DNA of 64,000 nucleotides, from positions 114,488 to 178,487 of the IMG/VR virus record IMGVR_UViG_3300009103_001934. One strand, written 5' to 3'. Position 1 is the stretch's first letter. The number at the start of each line of letters is the position of its first letter. The position numbers and the translations under genes were made by a program. Source of the DNA: a virus. Below the pieces are notes generated by a model. That model ran no database searches. It had not been told where the DNA came from and saw only the letters and a list, made by a program, of their open reading frames with translations. Positions 2-16,130 of the stretch are shown in pieces.

Positions 2-1036
2 CAAGGGCATCGTCGCGGAATCATGGGCAAAGTATTGCCTTACATTCTGGAACAGGAGAAGAATGTCTATTTAATTAAATTTAATAGCGAGGCAGAGAAG
101 AAGCGTTGGAAAGCGTATGCGGGTTTCGACACTAAAATGCTCAAATTGAGCGAGATGGAGAAACGTCCGTTGAGTGATTTCGCTGGATACTCTGCTGCTC
201 CTGCTGGTTCTGGAGTGGGTGAGAAGAACAAAAAGCACTCTGCAAAGTGTTTCACGTTCAAATTCGACCACAAGGGACAGTATTGGGACAGAAAGAAGTC
301 CTCTTGGTGGAGCATCGCAGACGTAGACGTAGCAGACACTAGCGAAACGCGAGTGTACGTTATCCTAGACCAATTCCAAGCAGAGAGGAATAATGGCGAT
401 GGATACCCAACTACCGAAGTACCTAACAAGATTAAGGAACTGAAGAACTGCTTTGAGCAAGCTCATATCCCCTTCCCCGAAAACGTGTATGGGTTCAAGC
501 TCAAGAATCGTAGTGATGTGGAAGGTAAGGACGGTTGGATTACCCTCTGGGATTACATCCAAGTCACGCTCAAGGAGAAGCTCAAGGACGGTGAGTATGA
601 ATTGGCATGGGCCGATATGCTGGAATTGAAGGCACTTGAGAATGACCGTGACCTTGTGGAAGATTACTGGAATTGGGACGCTAAAGGACTCCTGACGCAA
701 TTAAGAGCCTCCATAGAGGATATGGCACTCAAGGATGCAGAAGGTTCTGCTCATGCGTTAGCGTGTAATTTCGGGCTAATGAAGGCACGTTCTGGACGCG
801 ATGGCGTTGAGACAATCAAGAACCTTTGCTCTCAATTCGGCATCGAAGTGAATCTGAAGGGTAAACCATCATTTCCGCTCATAAAAGAGTTCAAAAAGGC
901 ACTGAAACGCTACCCGATGCTCAAGCACATCAAATCCGATGTGTGGAGGCACGGCAAAGTGCAAGGTATGAAGGAAATCGTCAACTACATCAATCTGGTT
1001 GACGTATGTAACCAATCCTCAAGCACAGAGGAGTAA
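2..1036 (+). CDS. rIIA: RIIA-like protein, C-terminal part (5'-truncated by window)
   Basis: Frame open from base 2; lies upstream of a clear rIIB-like gene. The call rests mainly on synteny. Confidence 0.55.
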   Translation, partial: QGHRRGIMGKVLPYILEQEKNVYLIKFNSEAEKKRWKAYAGFDTKMLKLSEMEKRPLSDFAGYSAAPAGSGVGEKNKKHSAKCFTFKFDHKGQYWDRKKSSWWSIADVDVADTSETRVYVILDQFQAERNNGDGYPTTEVPNKIKELKNCFEQAHIPFPENVYGFKLKNRSDVEGKDGWITLWDYIQVTLKEKLKDGEYELAWADMLELKALENDRDLVEDYWNWDAKGLLTQLRASIEDMALKDAEGSAHALACNFGLMKARSGRDGVETIKNLCSQFGIEVNLKGKPSFPLIKEFKKALKRYPMLKHIKSDVWRHGKVQGMKEIVNYINLVDVCNQSSSTEE

Positions 1037-3301: not shown

Positions 3302-3494
3302 CCCATCTCCACTGGAATGTCAAGAAAAAAATGCCCCAGACCCGTCCTTGAGAATGAGTCTCATTTGCGATTTTTAAGAAAATAACAAAGAAAAATGCTA
3401 ATTTTATTCATTTTAATAATTTTAATTGCAATTATAGATATTTTTACGAATAATCTTGACACAAATTAGGAAATAGTTCAATATATTTAATAAC

Positions 3495-4107: not shown

Positions 4108-5082
4108 ATGAGTGAAACCTACTTCCCAGATATAATTGGTCAGAACCGTGTCAAAAAAGCGTTGGGCTTTTATATTGACGGTTATCAAGAAACGAATTGC
4201 ATACCGCATCTGATGTTTACTGCACCTCGCGGGTGCGGCAAGACTACGATGGCAACTGCTATGGCAAAGAACCTTGTTGGGCCTGACGGTGCGATTAAGC
4301 CTCTTATTACTATCAACTGTTCTACCATCAAGAGCCTCAAGCAGTTTTTCAATATGATTGTGATACCTCATATGGTTGAGCGTGATGCCACCGTGCTGTT
4401 TGACGAATGTTCTGAATTGCCCAAGGATGTGACGATGGCACTACTGACCATCACCAACCCTAATCCAGAGAACCAGAACGAGTTCTCCTATGAGGACTAT
4501 AACGTGGTGTTTGACTTTCGCCGCTTGAGCTTCATGTTCGCCACTACCGAAGGGCAAAGTATCTTCCATGCACTCATGGACAGAATGGAGCGCATCGACT
4601 TGGAAGAATATAAGTTAGATGAACTTGGTAAGATTGTGTTGCTTGGATTAGACGGTTATACTGTCGAGCAAAAAACGCTAGAGAGTATTTCTAACGTCCT
4701 GCGAGGCAACGCCCGTGCTGGTCAGAAAATGGCGATGAAGATGCGCCTATACCTTGATGCTAAAGGTCAGACTCATTTTGCCGACAAGGATTGGAAGGAA
4801 CTTATGGACAAGCTCGGTATCCTGCCGCTTGGCATCTCCGTCCAAGAACTCAACCTCATGCGTTACATGGCGCGGAAGAAGGCAACTCGCCTTACCGAAC
4901 TCGCCGCAATCACTGGACTCTCCAAGGGAGCAATCCAAAAAGATTATGAGTTATATCTCTCCAAAATGGGTCTAATGGAGATACAACCAGAGGGTCGCTC
5001 CCTCACAACAAAAGGATTGGAGTATCTTAATGACCTCGATGGAGTTAAAAAGAACAAGTCTAACAAGGCTAGTAAAAAATAA
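4108..5082 (+). CDS. ruvB: RuvB-like AAA+ branch-migration ATPase
   Basis: DIIGQ, Walker A APRGCGKT, Walker B LFDE, FATTE, LMDRM arginine finger, RGNAR sensor II, C-terminal ELYL...GRSLT; promoter TTGACA-17-TACAAT. Confidence 0.85.
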   Translation: MSETYFPDIIGQNRVKKALGFYIDGYQETNCIPHLMFTAPRGCGKTTMATAMAKNLVGPDGAIKPLITINCSTIKSLKQFFNMIVIPHMVERDATVLFDECSELPKDVTMALLTITNPNPENQNEFSYEDYNVVFDFRRLSFMFATTEGQSIFHALMDRMERIDLEEYKLDELGKIVLLGLDGYTVEQKTLESISNVLRGNARAGQKMAMKMRLYLDAKGQTHFADKDWKELMDKLGILPLGISVQELNLMRYMARKKATRLTELAAITGLSKGAIQKDYELYLSKMGLMEIQPEGRSLTTKGLEYLNDLDGVKKNKSNKASKK

Positions 5083-5110
5083 ATATAAAATAGATGATGA
5101 GCCTATACGG

Positions 5111-5332
5111 ATGTCTGATTACGAATGGCGCGGCACATTAAATAATAGTGATTTATTTGTAGTTATTAAATATAACCTTGGTGCTTGGAAAGTAAAATAT
5201 GCTGAAACAGAATACGATCTAAATAATGTAGATTATATATATGTAGCGCAAGAATGGAGTCCGATGAAGTATATTATAAATAAAGATAAGATAGAAATAA
5301 ATAACTTAATAACATTTTTAGGATGGAAATAA
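5111..5332 (+). CDS. Hypothetical protein (start uncertain)
   Basis: AT-rich ORF; first in-frame ATG beyond the ruvB overlap. Confidence 0.5.
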   Translation: MSDYEWRGTLNNSDLFVVIKYNLGAWKVKYAETEYDLNNVDYIYVAQEWSPMKYIINKDKIEINNLITFLGWK

Positions 5333-5451: not shown

Positions 5452-5690
5452 GTATTTTCTTTAAAACAGTGTAAATAATAATAAGACCTTGCTAAATAAA
5501 TAAATAAGGCAAGCTCAACAGGTTATGTTCAAATAAGCTTTGTAGAATAGGTTCGTCAAATATAGAACTGAAATAAAGTAAAAATAAAACAGGCCCAAAT
5601 AAGGTAAGGTTTAAACTAAATGAGAGTCAATCTCAACGTCCCTCCTTTATGCTAATGAGACTCATTCTCAATTTCACCGGTCCCGATGTT

Positions 5691-5845: not shown

Positions 5846-6256
5846 ACAGTGAGGGTAACACCTCCACGATCTTTGAGACAATTTAAGAAGGCGACTGTGG
5901 TAGTCCTCACGCAAGTGAGTGCCCTCGCGGGAAAGCCCCCAGTGGAAGCGCGACGAAACTGGACGGTGATACGATACCGGAGGGATGGGGTTCGACTCCT
6001 CACGCCCTAACAATTTAAGCCTTGGGTGACGGAACAAACGTCCGACAGAGGAAACGGCCCAAGCAATTTTTACTCCGGCGACGGTTGGAGTAAGGGAATG
6101 GCTGAATAACCCTCCATCATAAGGGGTAAGGCACAGGGCCGCGCGTTAGAGTGCAATCGTATGAGGCGCGTGGTTCTGGTAGACTGGTAAACTTGAACTG
6201 TATTGTGCACTGGTCTTGATGGTAATGCAGCAATCCATCTTCCCATTAATTTAGCA
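5846..6256 (+). ncRNA. Large structured ncRNA candidate (family unassigned)
   Basis: No + strand ORF of 60 aa or more; dense hairpins (CTCAC-GCAA-GTGAG, CCAGT/ACTGG, CTTGGG/CCCAAG, TTACTCC/GGAGTAA, GATGG/CCATC) and a T-arm-like TGGGG-TTCGACT-CCTCA. Confidence 0.7.
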
Positions 6257-6348
6257 TAATCCTGAGGTTGGTGAAAACCATTAAAGAGATATTAAGCAAC
6301 AACGCCGAAATCCGCCTCTGATTTTTTTTGCCCTAATGTTAATTTTTT

Positions 6349-6412
6349 GCTTGACACGCCGGGACCGGTCCCGGCGCCTGTCAAGCTTTTTTTATTCACA
6401 GCCTGTGAGAAT
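6349..6412. repeat. Early module 1 (TTGACA-GGGACCGGTCCC-TGTCAAGC-T7, DnaA-box match)
   Basis: Palindrome 6361-6372; TTATTCACA 6392-6400. Confidence 0.9.
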
Positions 6413-6650
6413 TTCTTAAAAAGGGGCGATTTCTCCGGTGTGAAATTCGGCGTATATAAGAAACTATTTGACCCCATACCCTGCAAAAACAGTGTCAAGC
6501 TCAAAAACAATTACCCTATATAAACGCATTTAATTAGCCTAATTAAAAAAGATGTGTGTGACGTGCATTTTTTTCTTGCCAGTGATTAGGAAGTGTGAGA
6601 TAATGGTTTTAGTCGATTGAGACATAACTACTAACGAAAGAGAACGAACT

Positions 6651-7586
6651 ATGCCTATTACCGCAAAACAAAGCAAAAACAAAGATTGGGATTTCACCGT
6701 AGCACAGGAGGAGCTTTTCCTGCCTGACGGCAAGAAGTCCGGTTTCTTCGCGTCCCGCCGCCTCGACAACAACGAGGTGCTGGGCTGTCACACTAGCCGC
6801 TACGGCATCGTCCAGAATGGCGACCTAGTGGAAAAAGCCGAGAGTGCTTTTCGCCGCAAGGGATTGGGCGATTTTGAGCGCAACATCTATGTGACTGACG
6901 GCGGAGCCAAGCTGCGCGTCAATTACGACTTCCAAGGTCACGATATTGAAGTGCCAGAAGTGGGTGACAAGATGGGCTTTCGCCTGACCTTGCAAAACTC
7001 ATTTGACCGCTCGCTGCGCGTGTCCTTTGCGCTCGGTATGCTTCGCCTCGTTTGCACCAACGGTATGCAGACGCTCGAAAAGGAATTGGATATGCTCAAG
7101 AAGCACTCCAAGAACTTTGACCTCGGCGCGTTGCTGACTGATGACGCAATCGACAAGGCTATGGCTACGTTCACCAACACGGGGAACACATACGCCGCGC
7201 TGGCTCGCGTTGGAGTTACTCAAGAGCAAGGCATCTTCGCCCTGCAAAACCAAGCCAACACTGGTTTGATTTCTGACAAGGTGCGCGAGGGTATCGCAAG
7301 CGTGTGGAACAACCCACGCGAGGATGGTGCTGACGGTTCGGTTGGTGATGACCGCAACCTCTACCAACTCTACAACGCTGCCACGCAGTACCTCACCAGT
7401 GACAACTTGGTTGACAAGAAGTCTGGCGATGCTGTCGGCACGTTCGAGTCCACCCGCTTCGAGTACGCGAACCGCGTTAGCTCGCAACTGCTCAAGCGGT
7501 TCAACCTCGCCAGCGACAACCCCAAGCGGTTTGACAAACTGGTTGCGGTTGCCAAGGCTGACGGCGTAAAGGTCGAGAACAACTAG
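6651..7586 (+). CDS. DUF932/DUF945-family protein
   Basis: LQNSFDRS...LRLVCTNGM motif; strongly GC-rich codon bias. Confidence 0.85.
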   Translation: MPITAKQSKNKDWDFTVAQEELFLPDGKKSGFFASRRLDNNEVLGCHTSRYGIVQNGDLVEKAESAFRRKGLGDFERNIYVTDGGAKLRVNYDFQGHDIEVPEVGDKMGFRLTLQNSFDRSLRVSFALGMLRLVCTNGMQTLEKELDMLKKHSKNFDLGALLTDDAIDKAMATFTNTGNTYAALARVGVTQEQGIFALQNQANTGLISDKVREGIASVWNNPREDGADGSVGDDRNLYQLYNAATQYLTSDNLVDKKSGDAVGTFESTRFEYANRVSSQLLKRFNLASDNPKRFDKLVAVAKADGVKVENN

Positions 7587-7602
7587 GCCAAACCTACAAA
7601 CA

Positions 7603-7630
7603 CCCCCCGCCTTCGGGCGGGGATTTTTTT
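7603..7630 (+). terminator. Rho-independent terminator
   Basis: CCCCGCC-TTCG-GGCGGGG followed by a T tract. Confidence 0.85.
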
Positions 7631-7649
7631 GCGATTGTGGAAACTTTTT

Positions 7650-7695
7650 GCTTGACATTCGGCGGGACCGGTCCCGATTTTGTCAAGCTTTTTTT
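7650..7695. repeat. Early module 2
   Basis: TTGACA 7652, GGGACCGGTCCC 7664-7675, TGTCAA 7681. Confidence 0.9.
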
Positions 7696-7754
7696 GTGCG
7701 TTTGCGAATAACTTTCTTCTTGACGTAAAAGCGGATGTGTAGTACTATATAAAC

Positions 7755-7991
7755 ATGATGAACGAATTAGATCAACTCAAAGAAGACATTTGCATGAAGA
7801 GCTTCGGTCGCAGCCGAAGTCTCGCGCTAGCCGCAGGGCAGTGTGTTAAGTGTGGAACCTATGACCTCGACTTTCGCGATGAACCATCGCAACGTGAGTA
7901 CAAACTCACCGTGTGGTGTCAGTCGTGCCAAGACGATTTCTTCGGGCTGGATTCGGACGGTGAAATCGCATGGGAGGAGGATGAGGATTAA
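7755..7991 (+). CDS. Small Zn-finger protein, leaderless
   Basis: CVKC...CQSC; ATG 6 nt after -10 TACTAT. Confidence 0.75.
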   Translation: MMNELDQLKEDICMKSFGRSRSLALAAGQCVKCGTYDLDFRDEPSQREYKLTVWCQSCQDDFFGLDSDGEIAWEEDED

Positions 7992-8503
7992 TGGATATCG
8001 CAAACACACTTAAGCGCGAGGTCTATCGCAACCTTCACTTCAGGAACGAGACCGTTTATTCTGTACGTAAGGAAGGCCTTGTAGAGGGGCATGCCCTGAT
8101 GGTCATCATGGACGGAACGACTAAGACCCCAATTAAGTTTGCGGTCGGCCCTAAGGGCAACCAGCGCGTACGTGATGAAGAGCGCAAGAACGTGCACGCT
8201 GTTATCCGCGGGCACATCAACAACGCCGTGTGGTATACAAGTGACATGGATGTGGATGCATTCGAAATGGGTCATGCTAAGGATGCCTGCGAGTACTTTA
8301 AAAAACAGTACATGATCGAGCGTGAGGGATATCGATGGCTTGAGGTTGTATATAATCCTTACAAGTACCGCACCTTCATGACTCGTGACACGGATCCTTT
8401 CAGATCGAATGAAGACGTCTATGAGCCTATCTTTACCGCTCGCACAGTCATCATCGGCGAGACGTGCTGGGCGCAAGTCCGGGCGGAGCACGAGATGAAT
8501 TAA
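7991..8503 (+). CDS. Conserved phage hypothetical protein
   Basis: VYRNLH, RKNVHA, YNPYKY motifs; start overlaps upstream stop. Confidence 0.75.
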   Translation: MDIANTLKREVYRNLHFRNETVYSVRKEGLVEGHALMVIMDGTTKTPIKFAVGPKGNQRVRDEERKNVHAVIRGHINNAVWYTSDMDVDAFEMGHAKDACEYFKKQYMIEREGYRWLEVVYNPYKYRTFMTRDTDPFRSNEDVYEPIFTARTVIIGETCWAQVRAEHEMN

Positions 8504-8519
8504 TATTTTTCCTCCATCA

Positions 8520-8565
8520 GGCGGGTCCGGGTTTTATGTGTTTGACCGGGCCCGCCTACTTTTTT
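8520..8565 (+). terminator. Rho-independent terminator
   Basis: GGCGGGTCCGG...CCGGGCCCGCC followed by a T tract. Confidence 0.7.
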
Positions 8566-8629
8566 GCTTGACATTTCGGGACCGGTCCCGCGGCTTGTCA
8601 AGCTTTTTTTATCCACAACCTGTGAATTA
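8566..8629. repeat. Early module 3 with perfect DnaA box
   Basis: GGGACCGGTCCC 8578-8589; TGTCAA 8596; TTATCCACA 8609-8617. Confidence 0.9.
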
Positions 8630-8679
8630 TTTTTTCATTTTTTTCTTGCCTTTTTCTGCTCAACCTGTATAATGCTCGC

Positions 8680-8808
8680 ATGAAGATTAAAGCAAGAGTA
8701 AGCAAACAAGGATTTATGGGCAGCGCGTCCCGTGAACACAGAGTGAAGAAGGGCAAAGGCTCTTTCACTCGCAAACAAAAACACAAAAAAAGTATTGACA
8801 CAAACTAG
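8680..8808 (+). CDS. arfA: ArfA-like alternative ribosome-rescue factor (42 aa; absent from ORF track)
   Basis: MKIKARVSKQGFMGSASREHRVKKGKGSFTRKQKHKKSIDTN carries the ArfA KKGKGS(Y/F)xRKxKH motif; leaderless behind TTGCCT-16-TATAAT. Confidence 0.7.
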   Translation: MKIKARVSKQGFMGSASREHRVKKGKGSFTRKQKHKKSIDTN

Positions 8809-8827
8809 GATATAGGAGATAATCATA

Positions 8828-9259
8828 ATGATGATGGACGATATAAAACTGACCTACATTCCAGACTCTCACGACTGGATTAAAGTATATTTGCAAGCAC
8901 CTAACGCAGAACTTGCCGAGGCGTGGTTTAATTCCTTTTGGAATCACAACGCTACAAGCCAAGACGAGCCAGAATGGATATTCAAAAACGAGTTGGCATT
9001 TTGTACCACTTGGGACAAGCTAACCAAGGCCATGAATGATATTTTTCTTTTCATCCTTCTTAATGATGATGAAGATGCTTTCAAAGGCGAGGAAGGCGGC
9101 GCGATGCCGTTTGCCAAGGAACTAGCCAAGGCCAAGATTGCAGAGATGAACAAAAAAGATTCATCCATGCGCTACGGTCGCCAAGGTCACGTTTACACAC
9201 TCGGCGATGTTTACACCAACGAGGAAAAGTCATTTTCTTCTGGAACGTGCGACGTTTAA
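8828..9259 (+). CDS. Hypothetical protein, leaderless
   Basis: TTGACA-17-GATAAT then ATGATGATG. Confidence 0.75.
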   Translation: MMMDDIKLTYIPDSHDWIKVYLQAPNAELAEAWFNSFWNHNATSQDEPEWIFKNELAFCTTWDKLTKAMNDIFLFILLNDDEDAFKGEEGGAMPFAKELAKAKIAEMNKKDSSMRYGRQGHVYTLGDVYTNEEKSFSSGTCDV

Positions 9260-9296
9260 GCTTGACCTTTAACCCTCAAACCTTTATTATACTCTG

Positions 9297-10010
9297 ATGT
9301 TGAAATTCAAAGATGCAAACGGTAAACTCAAGAAGATGGCAAAGAAGCTTGGCGTTAAGCTTAAAACCTTCACTCTCCCTGCGGGCTATACTTGCGGCGG
9401 TGCAAAGGATTGCCTCGCGTATGCCGACAGAAAAACGGGCAAAGTGAGAGACGGCAAGGAAACACAATTCCGTTGTTTCATGGCATCGCTCGAAGCCACC
9501 TTTCCAAGTCTCCGCGCTATGGTGTGGGAGAATTACGAGCAGTTACAAGCGGCACTGAAAAACGGCGTTGATGCTTGCGCGGATCTGATCCACAACAGCT
9601 TGCCAAAGAAGTTTGACGTAATGCGCGTTCACGTTGGCGGCGATTACTTCAGCAGGGCGTATTTGCAAGCGTGGATTGAAGTTGCCAAGCGAAACCCTGA
9701 CAAGGTGTTTTACTCTTACAGCAAAAGCTTGCACCTGTTCAAGCAATTTGCGTTACCGGAAAACCTTGTGTTGACCGCTTCCCGTGGTGGCAAGTACGAT
9801 GATTTGATTGACCTCCACGCATGGAAAGAGGCGATTGTCGTATTCAGTGAAGAGGAAGCGGAAGAGCTTGACTTGGAAATTGACCACGACGATTCACACG
9901 CAGCGTTTGGCGCGGAGAATTTCGCGTTACTCATTCACGGCACACAGCCAGCAGGGAGCGCAGCAAGTGAAGCTTTGAAAGTCATAAAGAAAAAGGCAAG
10001 GGCTGCGTGA
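9297..10010 (+). CDS. GP88-like phage protein
   Basis: FTLPAGYTC...C...C, RVHVGGDYFS and FYSYSKS motifs. Confidence 0.75.
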   Translation: MLKFKDANGKLKKMAKKLGVKLKTFTLPAGYTCGGAKDCLAYADRKTGKVRDGKETQFRCFMASLEATFPSLRAMVWENYEQLQAALKNGVDACADLIHNSLPKKFDVMRVHVGGDYFSRAYLQAWIEVAKRNPDKVFYSYSKSLHLFKQFALPENLVLTASRGGKYDDLIDLHAWKEAIVVFSEEEAEELDLEIDHDDSHAAFGAENFALLIHGTQPAGSAASEALKVIKKKARAA

Positions 10011-10069
10011 TGGAATTTATTGTCCTTGTTGCCATCGGGTTGTATTTCGGCGCAAAGCTTAGTCGATAA
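10010..10069 (+). CDS. 19-aa hydrophobic micro-protein
   Basis: MEFIVLVAIGLYFGAKLSR; TGATG overlap with upstream stop. Confidence 0.45.
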   Translation: MEFIVLVAIGLYFGAKLSR

Positions 10070-10083
10070 AAATGACATTTTTT

Positions 10084-10128
10084 GCTTGACAGCCGGCGGG
10101 ACCGGTCCCGCGAGATGTCAAGCTTTTT
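10084..10128. repeat. Early module 4
   Basis: TTGACA 10086, GGGACCGGTCCC 10098-10109, TGTCAA 10116. Confidence 0.9.
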
Positions 10129-10214
10129 CTTTGTTATTTTTTTATTTGACACAAAGTCGGAAGTGGGGTATTATATAAACAGTGCGAACGAACTAACTAA
10201 AACTAAAAAAACTG

Positions 10215-10682
10215 ATGAACAACCTACATTCATATACTAACTACATCACTGGCACAGAACTTGAGAACGGAAAGATTCTCCTGTATGCTGGCAAAACACG
10301 CAACGGTATCGATGACCGTAAGAAAGGCAAAATGGCTTGCGGATTCATCGCTGGCGTTGGCCTAGATGGTCGTCTGTTTGACACCGTCCATTCTAACACT
10401 AACACCAAAAACGATAAGCTCACGGAGCAACGTCACATCAACACGATTCGTGCCGTGGCGCAATTACTCCCTGACGTTATCGTTGCTGGTAACACTTATG
10501 ACGATGGATTTTATGGGGGAATCATTTCGTCCATCAGTCCTAGCGTCTACGACAAAGTCGTAAGCTGGGTACAGGGTACGCGCACTATGACAGAAAAGCG
10601 CATGGTGGCGAACAAGCGAAAGCTGGCTCGAAAGCTCGCTCAAGTGAAGCGAGCTAGGCAAGCAAAGAAGGCTTTGGCTTAA
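10215..10682 (+). CDS. Hypothetical protein with basic C-terminal helix
   Basis: 155-aa ORF behind a TTGACA promoter. Confidence 0.75.
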   Translation: MNNLHSYTNYITGTELENGKILLYAGKTRNGIDDRKKGKMACGFIAGVGLDGRLFDTVHSNTNTKNDKLTEQRHINTIRAVAQLLPDVIVAGNTYDDGFYGGIISSISPSVYDKVVSWVQGTRTMTEKRMVANKRKLARKLAQVKRARQAKKALA

Positions 10683-10782
10683 CCCTAGTAGGGGGGAGAG
10701 AGTTTGGCGTGAATGCTTCGCCTCTTGAGTGGCTCTCTCCCCTCTTGACTTTTCAACAGAAACCCATTATACTTTTATACTT

Positions 10783-11256
10783 ATGGAGAGAATACATATA
10801 ATTATTGGATTGATAATCTTCTTTATTATTAGCATAACCGCTTCGGGCGATGAAGTCTTAACAAGGGACGAGCGTATTGTTGCACTCACTATACTGGGAG
10901 AAGCCCGTGGTGAAGGTAAAAAAGGAATGTATGCTGTCGCCTGTGTAATTCAGAAACGCGCGTCAGAACGCAACCTCACGCCAGCAAAGGTATGCCACCA
11001 ACCTTATCAGTTCAGCATTTGGAACGCTGGAAAGGGTAAGATAAAAAAAGAAAGTGAGTTGTATTATTTGTGGAAATCTAAATCCATGATGTACGCCAGA
11101 GAGTTAGCGAGAACAGTTTGCAAAGGTAAATTGTTAGATCAAAAATTCACTGGTAACGCAAATCACTATTGCAGAAAAGAAATCAATAACTATTGGACAA
11201 AGAAAGGAACAATAACAAAGGTAATTGGAAATCATAAATTTTTCAAATTACGATAG
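10783..11256 (+). CDS. SleB/Hydrolase_2-type cell-wall hydrolase with N-terminal TM segment
   Basis: ALTILGEARGEG, AVACVIQKR, PYQFSIWN, ANHY, IGNHKFF. Confidence 0.85.
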   Translation: MERIHIIIGLIIFFIISITASGDEVLTRDERIVALTILGEARGEGKKGMYAVACVIQKRASERNLTPAKVCHQPYQFSIWNAGKGKIKKESELYYLWKSKSMMYARELARTVCKGKLLDQKFTGNANHYCRKEINNYWTKKGTITKVIGNHKFFKLR

Positions 11257-11287
11257 GCTTCAAATAATAAATCAGTGCAAATATGAC

Positions 11288-11345
11288 CCGTCCCGAATAA
11301 GGGGCGGGTTTTTTTAGGGCAAAAAAAAGGCCCGCTTTCGCGGGT
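11288..11345. terminator. Back-to-back terminators between convergent genes
   Basis: CCCGTCCC...GGGGCGGG-T6 and A7-GGCCCGC-TTTC-GCGGGTT. Confidence 0.65.
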
Positions 11346-11350
11346 TGTGT

Positions 11351-11557
11351 TTAGCCCTCCAAACTGGAGGGGGTGAAATCACCGTGTCCGGTGATCTCAA
11401 GGGCACGCCCGTGATCATACTCACGGATATGCTCCTCGCGCATCCGCACGGTGCGACCATCATCCTTGAGGATGAGCCACTTGCCGTGGCGCGGAGAGGC
11501 GGCGACCACGCCAACGTAACCGTTGACGTCTTCGACTTCCATTCCTAATGTAATCAT
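11351..11557 (-). CDS. Small SH3/KOW-like protein
   Basis: LGMEVEDVNGYVGVV pattern. Confidence 0.65.
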   Translation of the reverse strand: MITLGMEVEDVNGYVGVVAASPRHGKWLILKDDGRTVRMREEHIREYDHGRALEITGHGDFTPSSLEG

Positions 11558-11608
11558 AATGATATTGATAGGGCGCGAATTCTTAGGCAGTCGCGCTCGC
11601 CCATGATG

Positions 11609-11818
11609 TTAGTCCTTCCAGACCATGTCCAGATATTCACCGTAAGTAGCAAGGTAATCCTGCCATTCGGTGTCCGTCATTAGCGGCCCATGGATTGCAA
11701 CCAGATTCGCCCAACGATCTTGGGTTTCCTGTTCGCGTGTCCACTCTTCATGCTCAAGCTGAGCTTCGATGTCTGCACTTATGGTCTCTTCTATGGTTGG
11801 CATCATGTCGTTCATCAT
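11609..11818 (-). CDS. Small acidic protein, leaderless (MMNDMM...)
   Basis: Minus-strand TTGTGC-17-TATATT 7 nt before ATG at 11818. Confidence 0.7.
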   Translation of the reverse strand: MMNDMMPTIEETISADIEAQLEHEEWTREQETQDRWANLVAIHGPLMTDTEWQDYLATYGEYLDMVWKD

Positions 11819-11891
11819 TAGAAAGAATATAACACGCATCTAAGAAAAGCACAAGGAAAAAATTCAAAAACTATTAACAAAAAAAATGCAA

Positions 11892-11968
11892 TTGTGAGCA
11901 AAAAAGACTTGACAGCCGCGGGACCGGTCCCGCTTATTGAGACCGAGTCTCACTAAAGTTGTGAATAA
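11892..11968. repeat. Early module 5
   Basis: GGGACCGGTCCC 11920-11931; TGAGAC-CGA-GTCTCA 11938-11952; TGTGAATAA 11960. Confidence 0.9.
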
Positions 11969-12011
11969 CTTTCTCCTTGACAATTACATCCTTTTGTAGT
12001 ATATTATTTAC

Positions 12012-12200
12012 ATGATGAACGATCCATATAGCCAGATAACCAGCGGAGACCGTGACAACCTGCGTGCGGAGTTTGACGAACAAATGGCGATAATTGACGG
12101 CGCGAATAACCCTGACATGATTTGGGTTCGTGGCACCCTGCCCTATGATGATGAGGGTGTACGGTGCGGGTGCGAAGACTACCCCTGTTGTGGGCATTAG
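12012..12200 (+). CDS. Small protein with C-terminal CxCEDYPCCGH metal-binding motif, leaderless
   Basis: TTGACA-17-TATATT then ATG after 6 nt. Confidence 0.75.
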   Translation: MMNDPYSQITSGDRDNLRAEFDEQMAIIDGANNPDMIWVRGTLPYDDEGVRCGCEDYPCCGH

Positions 12201-12204
12201 TAAC

Positions 12205-12277
12205 TTGTGAGTAAAAAAGACTTGACAGCCGCGGGACCGGTCCCGTTGAGACTCAGTCTCATTAAGATTGTGAATAA
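12205..12277. repeat. Early module 6
   Basis: GGGACCGGTCCC 12233-12244; TGAGAC-TCA-GTCTCA 12247-12261; TGTGAATAA 12269. Confidence 0.9.
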
Positions 12278-12328
12278 CTTTTTGAAAAAACCGCTTGACT
12301 TTTTGGCATTTATGGGTTATATTTAAGC

Positions 12329-12562
12329 ATGATTAAAACGAACATGAAAACTTACAACGTAGAGTTTACGACAGCATTCGCTGGCTCTCCGTTCGTCAAC
12401 ATCGTTCTTGAAGCCAAGGACGAAAAACAAGCTGAATGGGTTGCCCGTAACCTTTGCCGTTTCGGTTACATTAGCAACATCACAAAAACTGATGAAGTTG
12501 CTGCTTTTACCGAAGAAACTCACGCTTTTGCTTATGATGAAGATTATGAGATTTATTCATAG
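12329..12562 (+). CDS. Small protein, paralogue family X (divergent member)
   Basis: YNVEF...VNIVLEAKDEKQAEWV resembles the 14315 and 15454 products. Confidence 0.7.
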   Translation: MIKTNMKTYNVEFTTAFAGSPFVNIVLEAKDEKQAEWVARNLCRFGYISNITKTDEVAAFTEETHAFAYDEDYEIYS

Positions 12563-12598
12563 GTGGGACTGCGGATGTCCCACCCAGTATGCTATACT
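12563..12598 (+). promoter_or_regulatory. Operator-type promoter 1 (GTGGGAC-N7-GTCCCAC, TG-C-TATACT)
   Basis: Four near-identical copies (12563, 14017, 14492, 15651). Confidence 0.8.
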
Positions 12599-12604
12599 AG
12601 ACGC

Positions 12605-13060
12605 ATGATAATTAAGAACGAGATGAAAGAAAAACTAAAACCACTATTTGACCTAGACGGAACCCTTATCCGCGAGGAGCGCGGCTCAGATCGCCTATTT
12701 GATTTCCTACGGCCTCACGCTATTCTTAATCTCACAGAACACGACCTCACTCCTCTCGGAGTGTTAGTCAGAGACTCAGGCAAAGAATTTGACATTCTTA
12801 CAGCACGCGGCCCAGAGAATGCGCAGTTTATCCGTATAGCTCTTGAAGCTCTCGGATTCAACGTCGGTCGAATCGTAACCGTAGGCGTAGACATTAACGA
12901 GCCAAAGGATTGGGCTAATGTTAGCAGCAAAAGAGTAGCGGCAAAGAAAATCAGAATTGCCAAATTCGTCCAAAGGAAATTGGTTGACAACGATGCTAGG
13001 AATCTGGTAGGATTAGGAGAGTTAGGAGAGCTAGTAGCTCAAGACCAAACAGAGTTTTAA
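12605..13060 (+). CDS. HAD-superfamily phosphatase-like protein
   Basis: FDLDGTL motif I, ILTARG motif II, VDND. Confidence 0.75.
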   Translation: MIIKNEMKEKLKPLFDLDGTLIREERGSDRLFDFLRPHAILNLTEHDLTPLGVLVRDSGKEFDILTARGPENAQFIRIALEALGFNVGRIVTVGVDINEPKDWANVSSKRVAAKKIRIAKFVQRKLVDNDARNLVGLGELGELVAQDQTEF

Positions 13061-13061
13061 G

Positions 13062-13316
13062 ATGATGAATAAGATTATTACAATTAAAGCAAAAGCCAAC
13101 GCAAGCCGGCGCACTAAAAACCGCATTCGTGGATTTGGCCCACGTTTCATCGTAGAGAAGAAACATGACCTTAATGACATCATGGCCCTTATCGGCAAGC
13201 GTGATTCAGAGTCTTGGTTGCTGCGCGAAGTGGGCGGCCCAGACGGTGATCCGTGGTTTGGCTGGCTGCCAGCTAATGAATTTGAAATTGTTGAAACTGA
13301 AGGATTTTGGTCTTGA
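13062..13316 (+). CDS. Conserved small phage protein
   Basis: NASRRTKNRI...GWLP. Confidence 0.7.
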   Translation: MMNKIITIKAKANASRRTKNRIRGFGPRFIVEKKHDLNDIMALIGKRDSESWLLREVGGPDGDPWFGWLPANEFEIVETEGFWS

Positions 13317-13349
13317 CATTTAATCGGAAAACCCATATACTATAAACAG

Positions 13350-13574
13350 ATGATGAAGAAACACAACATACAAAACGCAAGCGTATTTGCCACAAAGCAA
13401 TTACGCGACAATCTTAACAAAGTGCTTACTCGCAAAGAGCGGCAACAACTTGACGAAAAAGATGCTAAAACAAAATGGTATCTTGAATTGATGATTGCTG
13501 CTTGTCTCGGTGCTGCTCTTGCCCTTGGCTTTGTAGTCGCTCACGGTATGCTCACAACTGACTGGACTTGGTAA
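13350..13574 (+). CDS. Small single-TM protein
   Basis: LMIAACLGAALALGFVVA. Confidence 0.7.
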   Translation: MMKKHNIQNASVFATKQLRDNLNKVLTRKERQQLDEKDAKTKWYLELMIAACLGAALALGFVVAHGMLTTDWTW

Positions 13575-13580
13575 AGAACG

Positions 13581-13691
13581 ATGAAAACACTATTCGAAGC
13601 AATTGACTCCCTTGTGATGCCACTCACATTCTTTATTATGATGCACCTTGTTGTGCTTTACATTATTATTCCTTTAATTATTTGGCTTTAA
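13581..13691 (+). CDS. 36-aa hydrophobic micro-protein
   Basis: MKTLFEAIDSLVMPLTFFIMMHLVVLYIIIPLIIWL. Confidence 0.5.
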   Translation: MKTLFEAIDSLVMPLTFFIMMHLVVLYIIIPLIIWL

Positions 13692-13705
13692 CAAAAAACA
13701 AACCT

Positions 13706-13822
13706 ATGCAAACTAAAACAAAAAAAGATTGGACACAAGCTCTGTTTGTGGGAAACATCGCAACCGTAACATTTATTGTCGGCGTGATCGTCGGTCAATT
13801 TGTCAAAGTCATAATTATGTGA
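13706..13822 (+). CDS. 38-aa single-TM micro-protein
   Basis: MQTKTKKDWTQALFVGNIATVTFIVGVIVGQFVKVIIM. Confidence 0.5.
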   Translation: MQTKTKKDWTQALFVGNIATVTFIVGVIVGQFVKVIIM

Positions 13823-13895
13823 TTTTGATAGGGGTCTGAAAACCTACGCTTGAGCCTTTGAGGTCTGACCTGTAGCGACACAGCGTGATGACTAC

Positions 13896-13932
13896 GACCC
13901 CACCCCCCTAGGGGTACCCCCCGGGGGGGGTC
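13896..13932. repeat. Chain of overlapping G/C palindromes
   Basis: CCCCTAGGGG, GGGGTACCCC, CCCCCCGGGGGG within GACCCC...GGGGTC. Confidence 0.8.
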
Positions 13933-13942
13933 TAAACTTTTT

Positions 13943-13989
13943 GCTTGACATCCGGCGGGACCGGTCCCGCTTATTGCGACTCGGTCTCA
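13943..13989. repeat. Early module 7
   Basis: GGGACCGGTCCC 13957-13968; TGCGAC-TCG-GTCTCA. Confidence 0.9.
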
Positions 13990-14016
13990 GTAAAACTTTT
14001 TTTAATTATCTTATGG

Positions 14017-14052
14017 GTAGGACTGCGGATGTCCCACCCTCTGTGCTATACT
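14017..14052 (+). promoter_or_regulatory. Operator-type promoter 2
   Basis: GTAGGAC-TGCGGAT-GTCCCAC, TGCTATACT. Confidence 0.8.
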
Positions 14053-14058
14053 ATACGC

Positions 14059-14262
14059 ATGATGATTAAAGAAGATAAGAAACCAACATACACCCTCTGG
14101 AACGGTGTGCAACTCATCGCCACCTACCCACACACACGTGAGGGCATGAATGCAGCCATGCTACGTGCATCAGAGCTAGGCATAGGGGCCAAGCTATACT
14201 CATCACGTGATGACCTAGTGTGGAGCGCACGCATGGCAGATGACATGATGGATTGTGAATAA
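14059..14262 (+). CDS. Small hypothetical protein, leaderless
   Basis: ATG 6 nt after -10; stop codon lies in the TGTGAATAA box. Confidence 0.7.
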   Translation: MMIKEDKKPTYTLWNGVQLIATYPHTREGMNAAMLRASELGIGAKLYSSRDDLVWSARMADDMMDCE

Positions 14263-14314
14263 CTTTCTTAAAAAACCGCTTGACTTTTTGACATTAATGA
14301 GCTATATTATACGT

Positions 14315-14491
14315 ATGTTAAACAAGATAGAAAGCATATTCACAGTAACATTCACCAACGACAGTACCGTGTTCATTAAGGCAAGGGATAGGGGACACGC
14401 GCGCCGCATCGTGGAGCGGAACGGTAGCACATGGACACGCGCTGATGAGAGCGTTGAAATGGTGATTAAAAAAATTGAAAGAAGTTGCTAG
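14315..14491 (+). CDS. Small protein, paralogue family X
   Basis: FTVTFTNDSTVFIKARDRGHARRIVE, nearly matching the 15454 product; leaderless. Confidence 0.75.
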   Translation: MLNKIESIFTVTFTNDSTVFIKARDRGHARRIVERNGSTWTRADESVEMVIKKIERSC

Positions 14492-14527
14492 GTAGGACAG
14501 CAGATGTCCCACCTCGTATGCTATACT
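14492..14527 (+). promoter_or_regulatory. Operator-type promoter 3
   Basis: GTAGGAC-AGCAGAT-GTCCCAC, TGCTATACT. Confidence 0.8.
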
Positions 14528-14545
14528 AGACGCAGTTAAAAGATT

Positions 14546-14836
14546 ATGGAAAAGAACAAGATGAACGAAACGATGACAGTAGAACAAGAAGCCCAACTCC
14601 TCCTTAATCAGGATGTACGCGTGACATTCGCGCAAAGCCAATTTTGGAACTGCACAGGTCGTGTGCGTAACATCATGGCCGATGGTCGCACACTTGAGAT
14701 TGACCTTGATTGGGACGGCAAGACCGTTCTTCTCGATGTCACCTTCGTGGGTGAGATTCAAGAGCGGACACAGTTCGCCAAGACCGAGCAAAGCCTCGGC
14801 CCAATCGCTAACAGTGTTGTAAAGTCTACCCTTTAA
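14546..14836 (+). CDS. Small SH3/Sm-like beta protein
   Basis: LLNQDVRVTF...TGRVRNIMADGRTLEIDLD. Confidence 0.65.
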   Translation: MEKNKMNETMTVEQEAQLLLNQDVRVTFAQSQFWNCTGRVRNIMADGRTLEIDLDWDGKTVLLDVTFVGEIQERTQFAKTEQSLGPIANSVVKSTL

Positions 14837-14837
14837 G

Positions 14838-15080
14838 ATGAACTACCATTATCAATTCGGCATGATTAAAACCACATCAAACAAAGAGCCTGTTGTAACT
14901 GATTTAGATAGTCAGTTTATGACTATCGACGGAGTGCTGCACTCTATTATCAGCCATCATTCATTTGATGATTTTGGTGCTACGTTGGACACTTTCAAAG
15001 TGATTAACTACGCTGGAACCATTCGAGAGATTTACTCTTTTGATGAGTGCGAAACATTCACCTTTGACAACGGAGAATAA
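14838..15080 (+). CDS. Hypothetical protein
   Basis: 80-aa ORF translationally adjacent to the upstream gene. Confidence 0.65.
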   Translation: MNYHYQFGMIKTTSNKEPVVTDLDSQFMTIDGVLHSIISHHSFDDFGATLDTFKVINYAGTIREIYSFDECETFTFDNGE

Positions 15081-15084
15081 TTAT

Positions 15085-15261
15085 ATGTATAATCCAGAAA
15101 ACCTTAAAGTAGGCGACAGAGTAAAGTCAACGGCCAGTGGTTGGGTTGGCGTAGTAGTCGGCGAAGGCTTTGGCAAACCAGACAAGGGAATGCTGCGCGT
15201 TCAACTCTCTTTCGGATTGACGCACGACTTTTATCCTAGCCACTTGGAAAAGATTAACTAA
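15085..15261 (+). CDS. Small KOW/SH3-like protein
   Basis: LKVGDRVKST...GWVGVVVG. Confidence 0.7.
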   Translation: MYNPENLKVGDRVKSTASGWVGVVVGEGFGKPDKGMLRVQLSFGLTHDFYPSHLEKIN

Positions 15262-15284
15262 AAGAGCCTACCCCCTAGGGGGGG

Positions 15285-15361
15285 TGTGAATAACTTTTGC
15301 TTGACAGCCGGCGGGACCGGTCCCGCTTATTGAGACTTAGTCTCATTCCAATTGTGAATAA
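15285..15361. repeat. Early module 8, flanked by two DnaA-box matches
   Basis: TGTGAATAA 15285 and 15353; GGGACCGGTCCC 15313-15324; TGAGAC-TTA-GTCTCA. Confidence 0.9.
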
Positions 15362-15453
15362 CTTTTTCATTTTAGGGGTTGACTTTTTGTCATTTTTGTG
15401 GCATACTATATGTATTGAGAGTGAGAGAAACAAAAGAAGAAACTAAAAAGATT

Positions 15454-15648
15454 ATGAGAAACCTACCAGCACTACCAGAGATGACCTTCGAGGTTACATT
15501 TGACAACGACAGCACGGTGTTCATTAGCGCACGCAACAAAGAACACGCTCGCCGCATCGTGGAAAACAACAAAGGATTTAGCCTGTGGCGTAGAAGAGAC
15601 GACGAAGAGTGGCAAAAGCGCACCATAAAAAAGATTGAGATAAATTAA
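15454..15648 (+). CDS. Small protein, paralogue family X
   Basis: FEVTFDNDSTVFISARNKEHARRIVE...IKKIE. Confidence 0.75.
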   Translation: MRNLPALPEMTFEVTFDNDSTVFISARNKEHARRIVENNKGFSLWRRRDDEEWQKRTIKKIEIN

Positions 15649-15650
15649 TG

Positions 15651-15686
15651 GTAGGACTACAGATGTCCCACCCTATGTGATATACT
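15651..15686 (+). promoter_or_regulatory. Operator-type promoter 4
   Basis: GTAGGAC-TACAGAT-GTCCCAC, TGATATACT. Confidence 0.8.
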
Positions 15687-15698
15687 AGACGCAGTTAA

Positions 15699-16130
15699 AT
15701 GATTATGAAAGAACAAAACACTATGAAAGCAAACAACCTAATCCTCGGAGCGGTTTACATCAACGCAACCACTGGCCAGCCTTGCCGCTTGGTCAACATC
15801 GTATCCTGCCAAGGTGTTTGGCTTGAGTCCTATGATGGACAAGGGTATGGTGAACTAGTCAGCTTCGATGATTGCCACTATGCAAGTCAGGATGAAGTGG
15901 AAGATTATCTTGAGGACTTGCGCGTTTACACCGCAAGCAACAAAGCACCATCTCACAAGTCACCAGTGAGCTATGATGAAGGATTAGACGAGGATGAAAT
16001 TGCAAGCTATGAAAGCAAGCATGACATCACACCGAACACTTCCTCGCGCGTTAAGAACTACGACACGTATTGGAACGTGCAAGGTTACTACGAGGACAGC
16101 TACGGCAACGACATCCGTTGCAGGGATTAA
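15699..16130 (+). CDS. Hypothetical protein with acidic tail
   Basis: 143-aa ORF behind operator promoter 4. Confidence 0.75.
   Translation: MIMKEQNTMKANNLILGAVYINATTGQPCRLVNIVSCQGVWLESYDGQGYGELVSFDDCHYASQDEVEDYLEDLRVYTASNKAPSHKSPVSYDEGLDEDEIASYESKHDITPNTSSRVKNYDTYWNVQGYYEDSYGNDIRCRD

Follow-up and report, generated by a model that had tools for sequence, protein, structure and literature searches.

The main route proposed for the swapping of small adaptive early genes among T4-type phages is shuffling at promoter-early stem-loops (PeSLs), elements described from RB49/phi1, PST/T4 and nt-1/KVP40 (Arbiol et al. 2010, PMC2839356; Comeau et al. 2014, PMC4122927). PeSLs are composite terminator/promoter elements at which early genes are shuffled and mini-circles are formed (PMC2839356, PMC4122927), and an exchange of ndd.4/.5 has been described for PST/T4 (PMC4122927). 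A comparable array is found in the last 64 kb (64,000 nucleotides, hereafter the window) of the 178,487-bp IMG/VR virus record IMGVR_UViG_3300009103_001934, a large phage, marine and uncultured, whose genome has a CheckV rating of 100% complete. Eight modules centred on the palindromic 12-mer GGGACCGGTCCC (hereafter the core) lie between positions 6349 and 15361 of the window, where they bound cassettes of small genes. Set beside the shuffling of cassettes at the PeSLs of T4-type phages, the array is an unusually sharp variant. Its modules are probably PeSL-type composite joints, which would both insulate the cassettes and allow their exchange in either orientation.

The analogy with PeSLs had been drawn in a preliminary description of this DNA, and for architecture it is borne out: in both systems a stem-loop terminator is joined to an A/T-rich block, then to a sigma-70-type promoter and the start of a gene (PMC2839356, PMC4122927), with a U-tract here in modules 1 to 4 only. 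In both, many copies occur in a block of small genes beside core genes (here eight in 9 kb, downstream of rIIB), the stem-loop has a lineage-specific consensus, and it is at the elements that related phages differ by indels, replacements and displacements. The T4 rIIB region is likewise a variable block of small genes. The ndd.4/.5 exchange of PST/T4 is located in it (PMC4122927).

Several features set the present array apart. A 14-bp block is letter-perfect in approximately 96% of approximately 179 copies, whereas PeSL stems are loosely conserved (GGGG..CCCC and similar). Breaks in homology cluster at the hairpin tip, whereas those of RB49 mini-circles lie in the promoter, -10 and Shine-Dalgarno (SD) region, and most genes start leaderless, whereas PeSLs carry an SD and a start codon at their 3' end. 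In addition, the arms of the joint (X, X' and Y) are combinatorial and all copies stand in one contiguous array.

Anatomy of the modules and their promoters

The core occurs in eight exact copies (at 6361, 7664, 8578, 10098, 11920, 12233, 13957 and 15313), precisely where the preliminary description had placed them. The expectation from 100 dinucleotide-preserving shuffles of the window is 0 copies, and a scan of the whole 178,487-bp genome found none outside the 9-kb array, extending the earlier statement that none was seen after 16 kb. Every core is preceded by (G/A)CTTGACA at a distance of 4 to 6 nt (8/8 copies). This TTGACA had been said to lack a -10 partner; indeed, there is no conserved -10 at 16 to 20 nt, and for this reason the candidate reading of TTGACA and core as a MerR-type or ordinary promoter was dropped. 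Rfam holds no family for the modules, its only match in the region being the manA RNA, and in the literature the 12-mer appears only as an unrelated oligonucleotide.

In copies 1 to 4 the left side is formed by arm X (GCTTGACA) and the right side is closed by arm X' (TGTCAAGC) with T5-T7, giving an X-core-X' unit that is an imperfect palindrome of 38 to 40 bp, intergenic and present in many copies. RNA folds of these copies reach -18.7 to -28.1 kcal/mol (z -3.7 to -5.9) and have a U-tract on their 3' side; the hairpin is two-tiered, with a basal 8-bp stem, an internal loop, an apical CGGGA/UCCCG stem and a CCGG loop. Both the right arm and the folds agree with the hairpin of about 40 bp plus T-run attributed earlier to the first four copies. 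All four modules are on the + strand. Module 1 (6349-6393; core 6361-6372, X' arm with T7) is a terminator-type hairpin of -28.1 kcal/mol and z -5.9. Module 2 (7650-7695; core 7664-7675, X' arm with T7, fold -20.0) is followed by a promoter at 7720-7748 and a leaderless ATG at 7755, module 3 (8566-8610; core 8578-8589, X' arm with T7, fold -18.7) by a TTATCCACA/TGTGAATTA block and then a promoter at 8646-8673, and module 4 (10084-10128; core 10098-10109, X' arm with T5, fold -24.9) by a promoter at 10146-10174. Ordinary terminators had been noted just upstream of two modules and both are present, one at 7605-7622 before module 2 and the other, a GC hairpin with a T-run, before 8566 and thus upstream of module 3.

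On the 3' side of the T-run in these copies stands a 6-N3-6 inverted repeat, T(T/C/G)CACA-N3-TGTGAA (6392-6420 and 8609-8629 in the window, and also in relatives), one half of which is the DnaA-box-like word TGTGNATAA/TTATNCACA. This word is present 3' of most core copies, with 7 occurrences in the 9.2-kb array and 11 in the whole genome.

The remaining copies had been described as a second type, in which the core continues with TGAGAC-N3-GTCTCA (arm Y) and usually a DnaA-box match. This is correct for copies 5, 6 and 8 and for the box. It needs amendment for copy 7, which has TGCGAC-N3-GTCTCA instead, with one uncompensated change, and for the left side of the copies at 11920 and 12233, which is A6-GACTTGACA, the reverse complement of the TGTCAAG-T-run arm. 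Module 5 (11907-11968, no strand assigned) comprises this inverted X' arm, the core at 11920-11931, a Y arm at 11938-11952 and a box at 11960-11968, and serves two sides, with an inverted minus-strand cassette on its left and a + strand promoter (11977-12005) on its right. The other three are on the + strand. Module 6 (12220-12277) has an A-run and ACTTGACA, the core at 12233-12244, a Y arm at 12247-12261 and a box at 12269-12277, followed by a promoter at 12295-12323. Module 7 (13943-13989) has an X arm, the core at 13957-13968 and a degenerate Y arm, TGCGACtcgGTCTCA, after which comes a palindrome-type promoter, GGTAGGAC-N7-GTCCCACC, at about 14016-14036. Module 8 (15299-15361) has an X arm, the core at 15313-15324, a Y arm at 15331-15345 and a box at 15353-15361, with a promoter at 15379-15407. 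The RNA of copies 5 to 8 folds into two small hairpins without a U-tract, not clearly better than shuffled sequence. The two degenerate modules reported earlier were also recognised, both on the + strand: one at 3339-3365, with 8/12 of the core and a Y-like TGAGAATGAGTCTCA, and one at 5654-5685, upstream of the manA RNA operon, with a Y arm (TGAGACTCATTCTCA) and a core that is without its first GGG (ACCGGTCCCG).

Strong sigma-70-type promoters on the + strand follow seven of the eight modules, much as had been described. Matches of 10-12/12 to the sigma-70 consensus number 15 in the array, all on the + strand; in a structural block of the same size there is one 11/12 match, on the minus strand, and a further eight of 10/12 are spread over both strands. 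The core never overlaps the promoter and in most modules is 27 to 65 nt from the -35. The distances cluster at 44-47, 49-52 and 53-59 nt without clear helical phasing, and this lack of a fixed spacing disfavours a strictly positioned activator site. Of 67 modules (window and metagenome), 48 have the ATG 6 to 9 nt past the -10, which leaves no room for an SD. The first genes of cassettes are mostly leaderless (7755, 8680, 12012 and 12329 in the window, and metagenome copies), and many open with ATGATGAACGA.

A second class of promoter was observed inside cassettes. It has the palindrome GGT(A/G)GGAC-N7-GTCCCACC in the place of the -35, followed by TGnTATACT and a start 6 to 7 nt later, and its four copies are all in the array (12565-12582, 14019-14036, 14494-14511 and 15653-15670). 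Clades with another core (L139 and L146) keep the palindrome, so that it probably serves a conserved regulator of its own, perhaps one tied to a later phase of expression. For the same reason, a single factor for this palindrome and the core, which share GGGAC half-sites, was dropped as a candidate.

Permuted cassettes and recombinant junctions

A pattern scan of IMG/VR gave three further phage contigs (G001, G002 and G003) with arrays of 6, 8 and 9 cores in the syntenic place. The flanks of the four phages are collinear at 70-84% identity; the cassettes, lettered P to W, are not. The order P|Q|R|S in the window and G001 is replaced in G002 and G003 by Q|P|S, and R stands further along. Cassette T is inverted in the window together with its joint, 11402-11956 matching G003 23505-22951 in reverse, and several cassettes are found in only some of the four phages. 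Identity to G002 spans 76-96% in the cassettes compared with 78-83% in the flanks, which suggests that cassettes have separate histories. Among the four phages, 26% of the ends of homology fall no more than 40 nt from a core compared with 6% of random positions, a 4.3-fold enrichment.

The modules had been suspected of acting as a recombination platform, and this is strengthened by cassettes that are permuted, inverted, gained or lost between collinear flanks and by the enrichment of homology ends at cores. The comparison of cassette order among relatives that had been proposed as a check gave an order that differs, with breakpoints at modules. The further claim that the cassettes are exchangeable stands for their order and content, which vary, but the DUF932, GP88, L5-gp82-like and Hydrolase_2 cassettes are kept in all clades sampled and are therefore not freely exchangeable accessories.

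Megablast with the array and with the structural block found nothing among 50,697 GenBank phages, protein-based locus searches of IMG/VR with the RuvB-like gene upstream of the array (as single sequence and as alignment) returned only the same three relatives, and an arm-only DNA scan of IMG/VR (GCTTGACA-N16-30-TGTCAAGCTTTT) gave two unrelated matches and nothing new. A metagenome scan for the core yielded at least 120 stretches, nearly all from marine samples.

The junction set consists of 172 perfect cores pooled from 84 sequences, among which there are 141 distinct contexts within 40 nt on each side. The core is flanked by X/X', by Y or by neither, and the arm combinations XX, XY, YX, YY and -Y were all seen. 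When the 125 junctions with flanks of 220 nt were clustered, 54 upstream and 48 downstream clusters occurred in 84 combinations, with one upstream context joined to nine different downstream cassettes. In recombinant pairs, which share one side, similarity stops no more than 30 nt from the core in 79% and 0 to 4 nt from it in 29-37%; longer stretches of similarity come from one RNA-operon cassette that has a variable part inside it. Complementarity between left and right spacers is 1.36 contiguous pairs within a module versus 1.63 between modules. Because spacers are thus no more complementary within than between modules, the halves appear to be of separate origin, and selection for a 40-bp hairpin paired along its whole length was dropped as a candidate. 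Judged from these junctions, the two halves of a joint belong to neighbouring cassettes and meet at the core.

The same junctions bear on the proposal that X-core-X' is a small selfish palindromic element, similar to repetitive extragenic palindromes (REPs) or miniature inverted-repeat transposable elements, which spread into intergenic sites independently of the cassettes. A lineage-specific, imperfect palindrome of 38 to 40 bp repeated often in intergenic DNA has the appearance of such an element, and REPs and bacterial interspersed mosaic elements are likewise lineage-specific extragenic palindromes that lie 3' of genes and may help to stabilise mRNA and to terminate transcription. However, the halves here have separate ancestry and travel with the upstream or downstream cassette, not as one unit; copies are restricted to one 9-kb block; the genome has no match to the Y1/RAYT transposase (PF01797) that accompanies REPs; and no pair with the same flanks with and without the unit was seen, no dedicated presence/absence search having been run. 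A selfish element is very improbable.

Core conservation and the proposed mechanism of exchange

The conserved block extends over 14 bp, CGGGACCGGTCCCG, which is C-GGGACCGGTCCC-G. Within the block the information content is 1.8-2.0 bits, and it drops to 0.04-0.85 bits at the positions next to it. In addition to the 172 perfect cores, four copies have one mismatch and three have two. The C..G flanks are kept in 26 of 30 cores from subsets free of fishing-pattern bias, and at Y-armed sites the core is perfect in 25 of 27, with one mismatch in the other two. Since the neighbouring spacers are saturated with change, the pattern of conservation indicates that the 14-bp block is under selection and not merely young.

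Distant contigs, fetched through RuvB-like homologues of 60-73% identity, include sister clades with the same arms and the same cassettes (DUF932, GP88, gp82-like and Hydrolase_2) but a different centre. In L139 and L140 the centre is GGGGCC[C/G]ACCCC. This is not palindromic and differs from GGGACCGGTCCC by a compensatory stem change (A4:T9 to G4:C9) and by a loop that goes from CCGG to CCGA to CCCA. The centre of L141 and L146 is CCGGGC[A/T]GCCCGG, and L144 has no GC-rich centre. As the arms are kept in sister clades while the centre differs, comparison of these loci indicates that the arms are older than the core, and that the centre is a short GC-rich hairpin whose exact sequence is fixed within a lineage. 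L145 (11500-19800), from a more remote clade, has other inverted repeats, TAAGTCATTGA...TCAATGACTTA, around G/C-rich runs, and part of its array is on the opposite strand. A third type of right arm was also observed in some relatives, a near-palindrome, GTGCGCCA-TAT-TGGCACAC, containing TGGCAC (L011 9270-9290 and 17280-17300; L139 7661-7680 and 13742-13760).

Replacement of a core between constant arms resembles the lambdoid nut sites, in which conserved flanking elements (boxA) accompany a short hairpin (boxB, bound by N) that is fixed within a lineage and replaced between lineages. By this comparison the 14-mer would be a regulatory site, bound as duplex DNA or at the tip of an RNA hairpin by a lineage-specific phage protein that co-regulates the cassettes (a factor for antitermination, processing or stabilisation, for instance, by analogy with N and boxB), and shuffling would be a by-product. 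Core swaps with the arms constant and a compensatory stem change are as expected of boxB with N, and an invariant block with sharp edges beside hypervariable spacers also fits. So do the Y arm, a 19-bp operator-like palindrome kept across clades, and the many cassettes with their own upstream terminator, for which the module is not needed for termination alone. Against such a site, the core stands upstream of the -35 at a variable distance, without clear helical phasing, and never overlaps the promoter. Neither a candidate binding protein nor an N-like protein was identified. Modules stand upstream of promoters and at 3' ends, not in 5' leaders, and their copy number is far higher than that of nut sites. 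Finally, regulation alone does not predict the independent origin of left and right halves. A regulatory site is a serious candidate, yet on balance an unlikely one.

The favoured reading, that the modules are PeSL-type exchange joints, would make each cassette a self-contained transcription unit of one to four genes, often with its own terminator. A cassette opens with a half-core followed by a right arm, which is either TGTCAAGC-T7 or the palindrome AATGAGAC-N3-GTCTCATT. It continues with an A/T-rich DnaA-box-like block, a sigma-70 promoter close to consensus and an ATG that is mostly leaderless, and it closes with a left arm (GCTTGACA) and a half-core. Wherever X meets X', a strong intrinsic terminator would form and insulate the neighbouring units. 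The 14-bp CGGGACCGGTCCCG at the tip of the hairpin would act as a shared patch of identity for cassette exchange, both within a genome and between co-infecting genomes of the lineage, and exchange could occur in either orientation because the block is palindromic. As none of the recombinase, nuclease and transposase families searched for matched in the genome, the default mechanism would be short-homology recombination or template switching at the GC-rich hairpin by the general recombination machinery of the phage. Cassettes with a mutated core would leave circulation, so that the block stays invariant.

Several observations weigh against such joints. A block of 14 bp is short for efficient homologous recombination, and neither gene conversion nor plain homology alone gives sharp edges beside hypervariable spacers; such edges are better matched by a specific recognition factor. 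The PeSL crossovers of RB49/phi1 map to the promoter part and not to the stem-loop (PMC2839356), and half of the modules in the window (5 to 8) are not terminators. Metagenome contigs do not end preferentially near cores (8.6% of ends within 100 nt compared with 7.8% expected), so assembly breaks give no population-level support. The sole hint of ongoing exchange is L083 (MPLU02000713.1), which may be an assembly-graph cycle. The contig, which is 3,774 bp long and from a metagenome, carries a terminal direct repeat of 141 nt and hence a unit of 3,633 bp, in the order RNA operon and S cassette, core, R cassette, core. The unit is the segment of G003 between two cores, closed on itself, and fits excision between two cores; a mini-circle would explain it, as would a tandem duplication or an assembly-graph cycle from mixed strains.

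Given its sharp edges and its replacement from lineage to lineage, the core leaves real room for an unrecognised specific factor, which might act on either DNA or RNA. The authors who described PeSLs raised the idea of a recombination protein that binds the stem-loop specifically (PMC2839356), and such a protein would accord with a dedicated, site-specific exchange of cassettes with integron-like logic, in which an unrecognised nuclease or recombinase acts inside the palindrome and site and enzyme form clade-specific pairs. Breakpoints at the core edges, the occurrence of all arm combinations, insertion in either orientation and the clade-specific invariant cores are in its favour, as is L083, with two cassettes, two cores and its terminal overlap. 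Integrons are also arrays of short gene units bounded by imperfect palindromes; their boundaries, too, are each composed of two halves, and their cassettes may in principle be released as circles. Unlike integron cassettes, which are promoterless and share a common Pc, those described here each have their own consensus promoter; the core is a short exact palindrome, whereas attC is long with extrahelical bases; and the carrier is a lytic-type phage genome. A tyrosine recombinase of the IntI kind is also lacking, PF00589 having no match in the complete genome in a search to which the controls responded in 14/14 genomes. More generally, a whole-genome Pfam search gave no match to Phage_integrase, Resolvase, GIY-YIG, HNH, Endonuclease_7 or Y1_Tnp. 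Clades without a GC-rich core (L144, L145) still hold the same cassettes in arrays, and the L139 core is not palindromic. Dedicated exchange of this type is, all told, decidedly improbable. It is likewise improbable that the 14-bp palindrome is both recognised and used for crossover by a lineage-specific phage protein that actively moves promoter-bearing cassettes between genomes, with sister-clade pairs as exchange-compatibility groups. If this were true, virulent phages would possess a recombinase-type cassette system, the long-suspected 'helper' of PeSL shuffling.

Cassette content, genomic surroundings and significance

Except where stated, the cassettes are on the + strand. Cassette P (6651-7586) encodes a DUF932 protein and precedes Q here and in G001 but follows it in G002 and G003, and Q (7755-8503) has a 78-amino-acid (aa) open reading frame (ORF) and a gene for an L5-gp82-like protein. 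Cassette R (8828-10010) has a 143-aa ORF and encodes a GP88-family protein; its place relative to S and T varies among the four phages. Cassette S (10215-11256) contains a 155-aa ORF and a gene for Hydrolase_2, a SleB-type cell-wall hydrolase. The Hydrolase_2 gene (10729-11256; 'endolysin' in PHROG) rides as a promoter-bearing cassette in a presumed early block and is kept in all clades sampled, in common with the DUF932, GP88 and L5-gp82-like cassettes. Cassette T (11331-11839, minus strand) consists of two small minus-strand ORFs with their own minus-strand terminator at 11344-11331 and is inverted relative to G002 and G003. Cassettes U and V (12329-15261) contain small ORFs without known function, and their content varies among relatives. 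The last cassette, W (15379-16130), with ORFs of 89 and 143 aa, follows the last core in 4/4 phages. Most ORFs of the array are small and without known function or matches, and the labels 'early' and 'host-takeover' are drawn from promoter type alone. G+C content is 44-50% in the cassette array (6001-16000) compared with 35-39% in the structural block (18001-40000).

Upstream of the array are an rIIB homologue (1607-2416; phrog_609, 1e-68), a RuvB-like AAA+ gene (4108-5082, + strand; PF05491, RuvB_C, 37.5 bits) and, in a small RNA region between the latter and the array, the manA RNA (6071-6249; Rfam). The RuvB-like gene is 5' of the cassette array in 7/7 clade loci (the window, L139-L141 and L144-L146) and in the three close relatives, and it keeps this place in clades whose junctions are without the GGGACCGGTCCC core. 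Its RuvB_C winged helix scores above the Pfam threshold, and it is overlapped by a 100-aa ORF without matches (4108-5332). Downstream of the array are glycosyltransferase and nucleotidyl-transferase genes, and then the structural block with a gp17-type terminase. Signs of kinship with T4 include the rIIB homologue, the Terminase_6N/gp17-type terminase and baseplate-wedge-like matches. Pfam Gp23 and Portal_T4 had no match in the genome, in searches that the control genomes could not validate. Kinship of this phage with T4 is uncertain.

Since 2010 it has been asked whether PeSL shuffling uses a specific factor or general recombination only. The lineage described here is an unusually clean test system for this question, with an exact, sharp-edged joint of 14 bp and hundreds of natural recombinant junctions in ocean metagenomes. 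A further asset is that sister clades swapped the sequence of the joint while the arms and cassettes were kept; comparison of full genomes with the three joint types could single out the cognate protein, if one exists. Tara-type marine data contain this lineage in abundance, and the mechanism therefore bears on the diversification of early genes in ocean phages.

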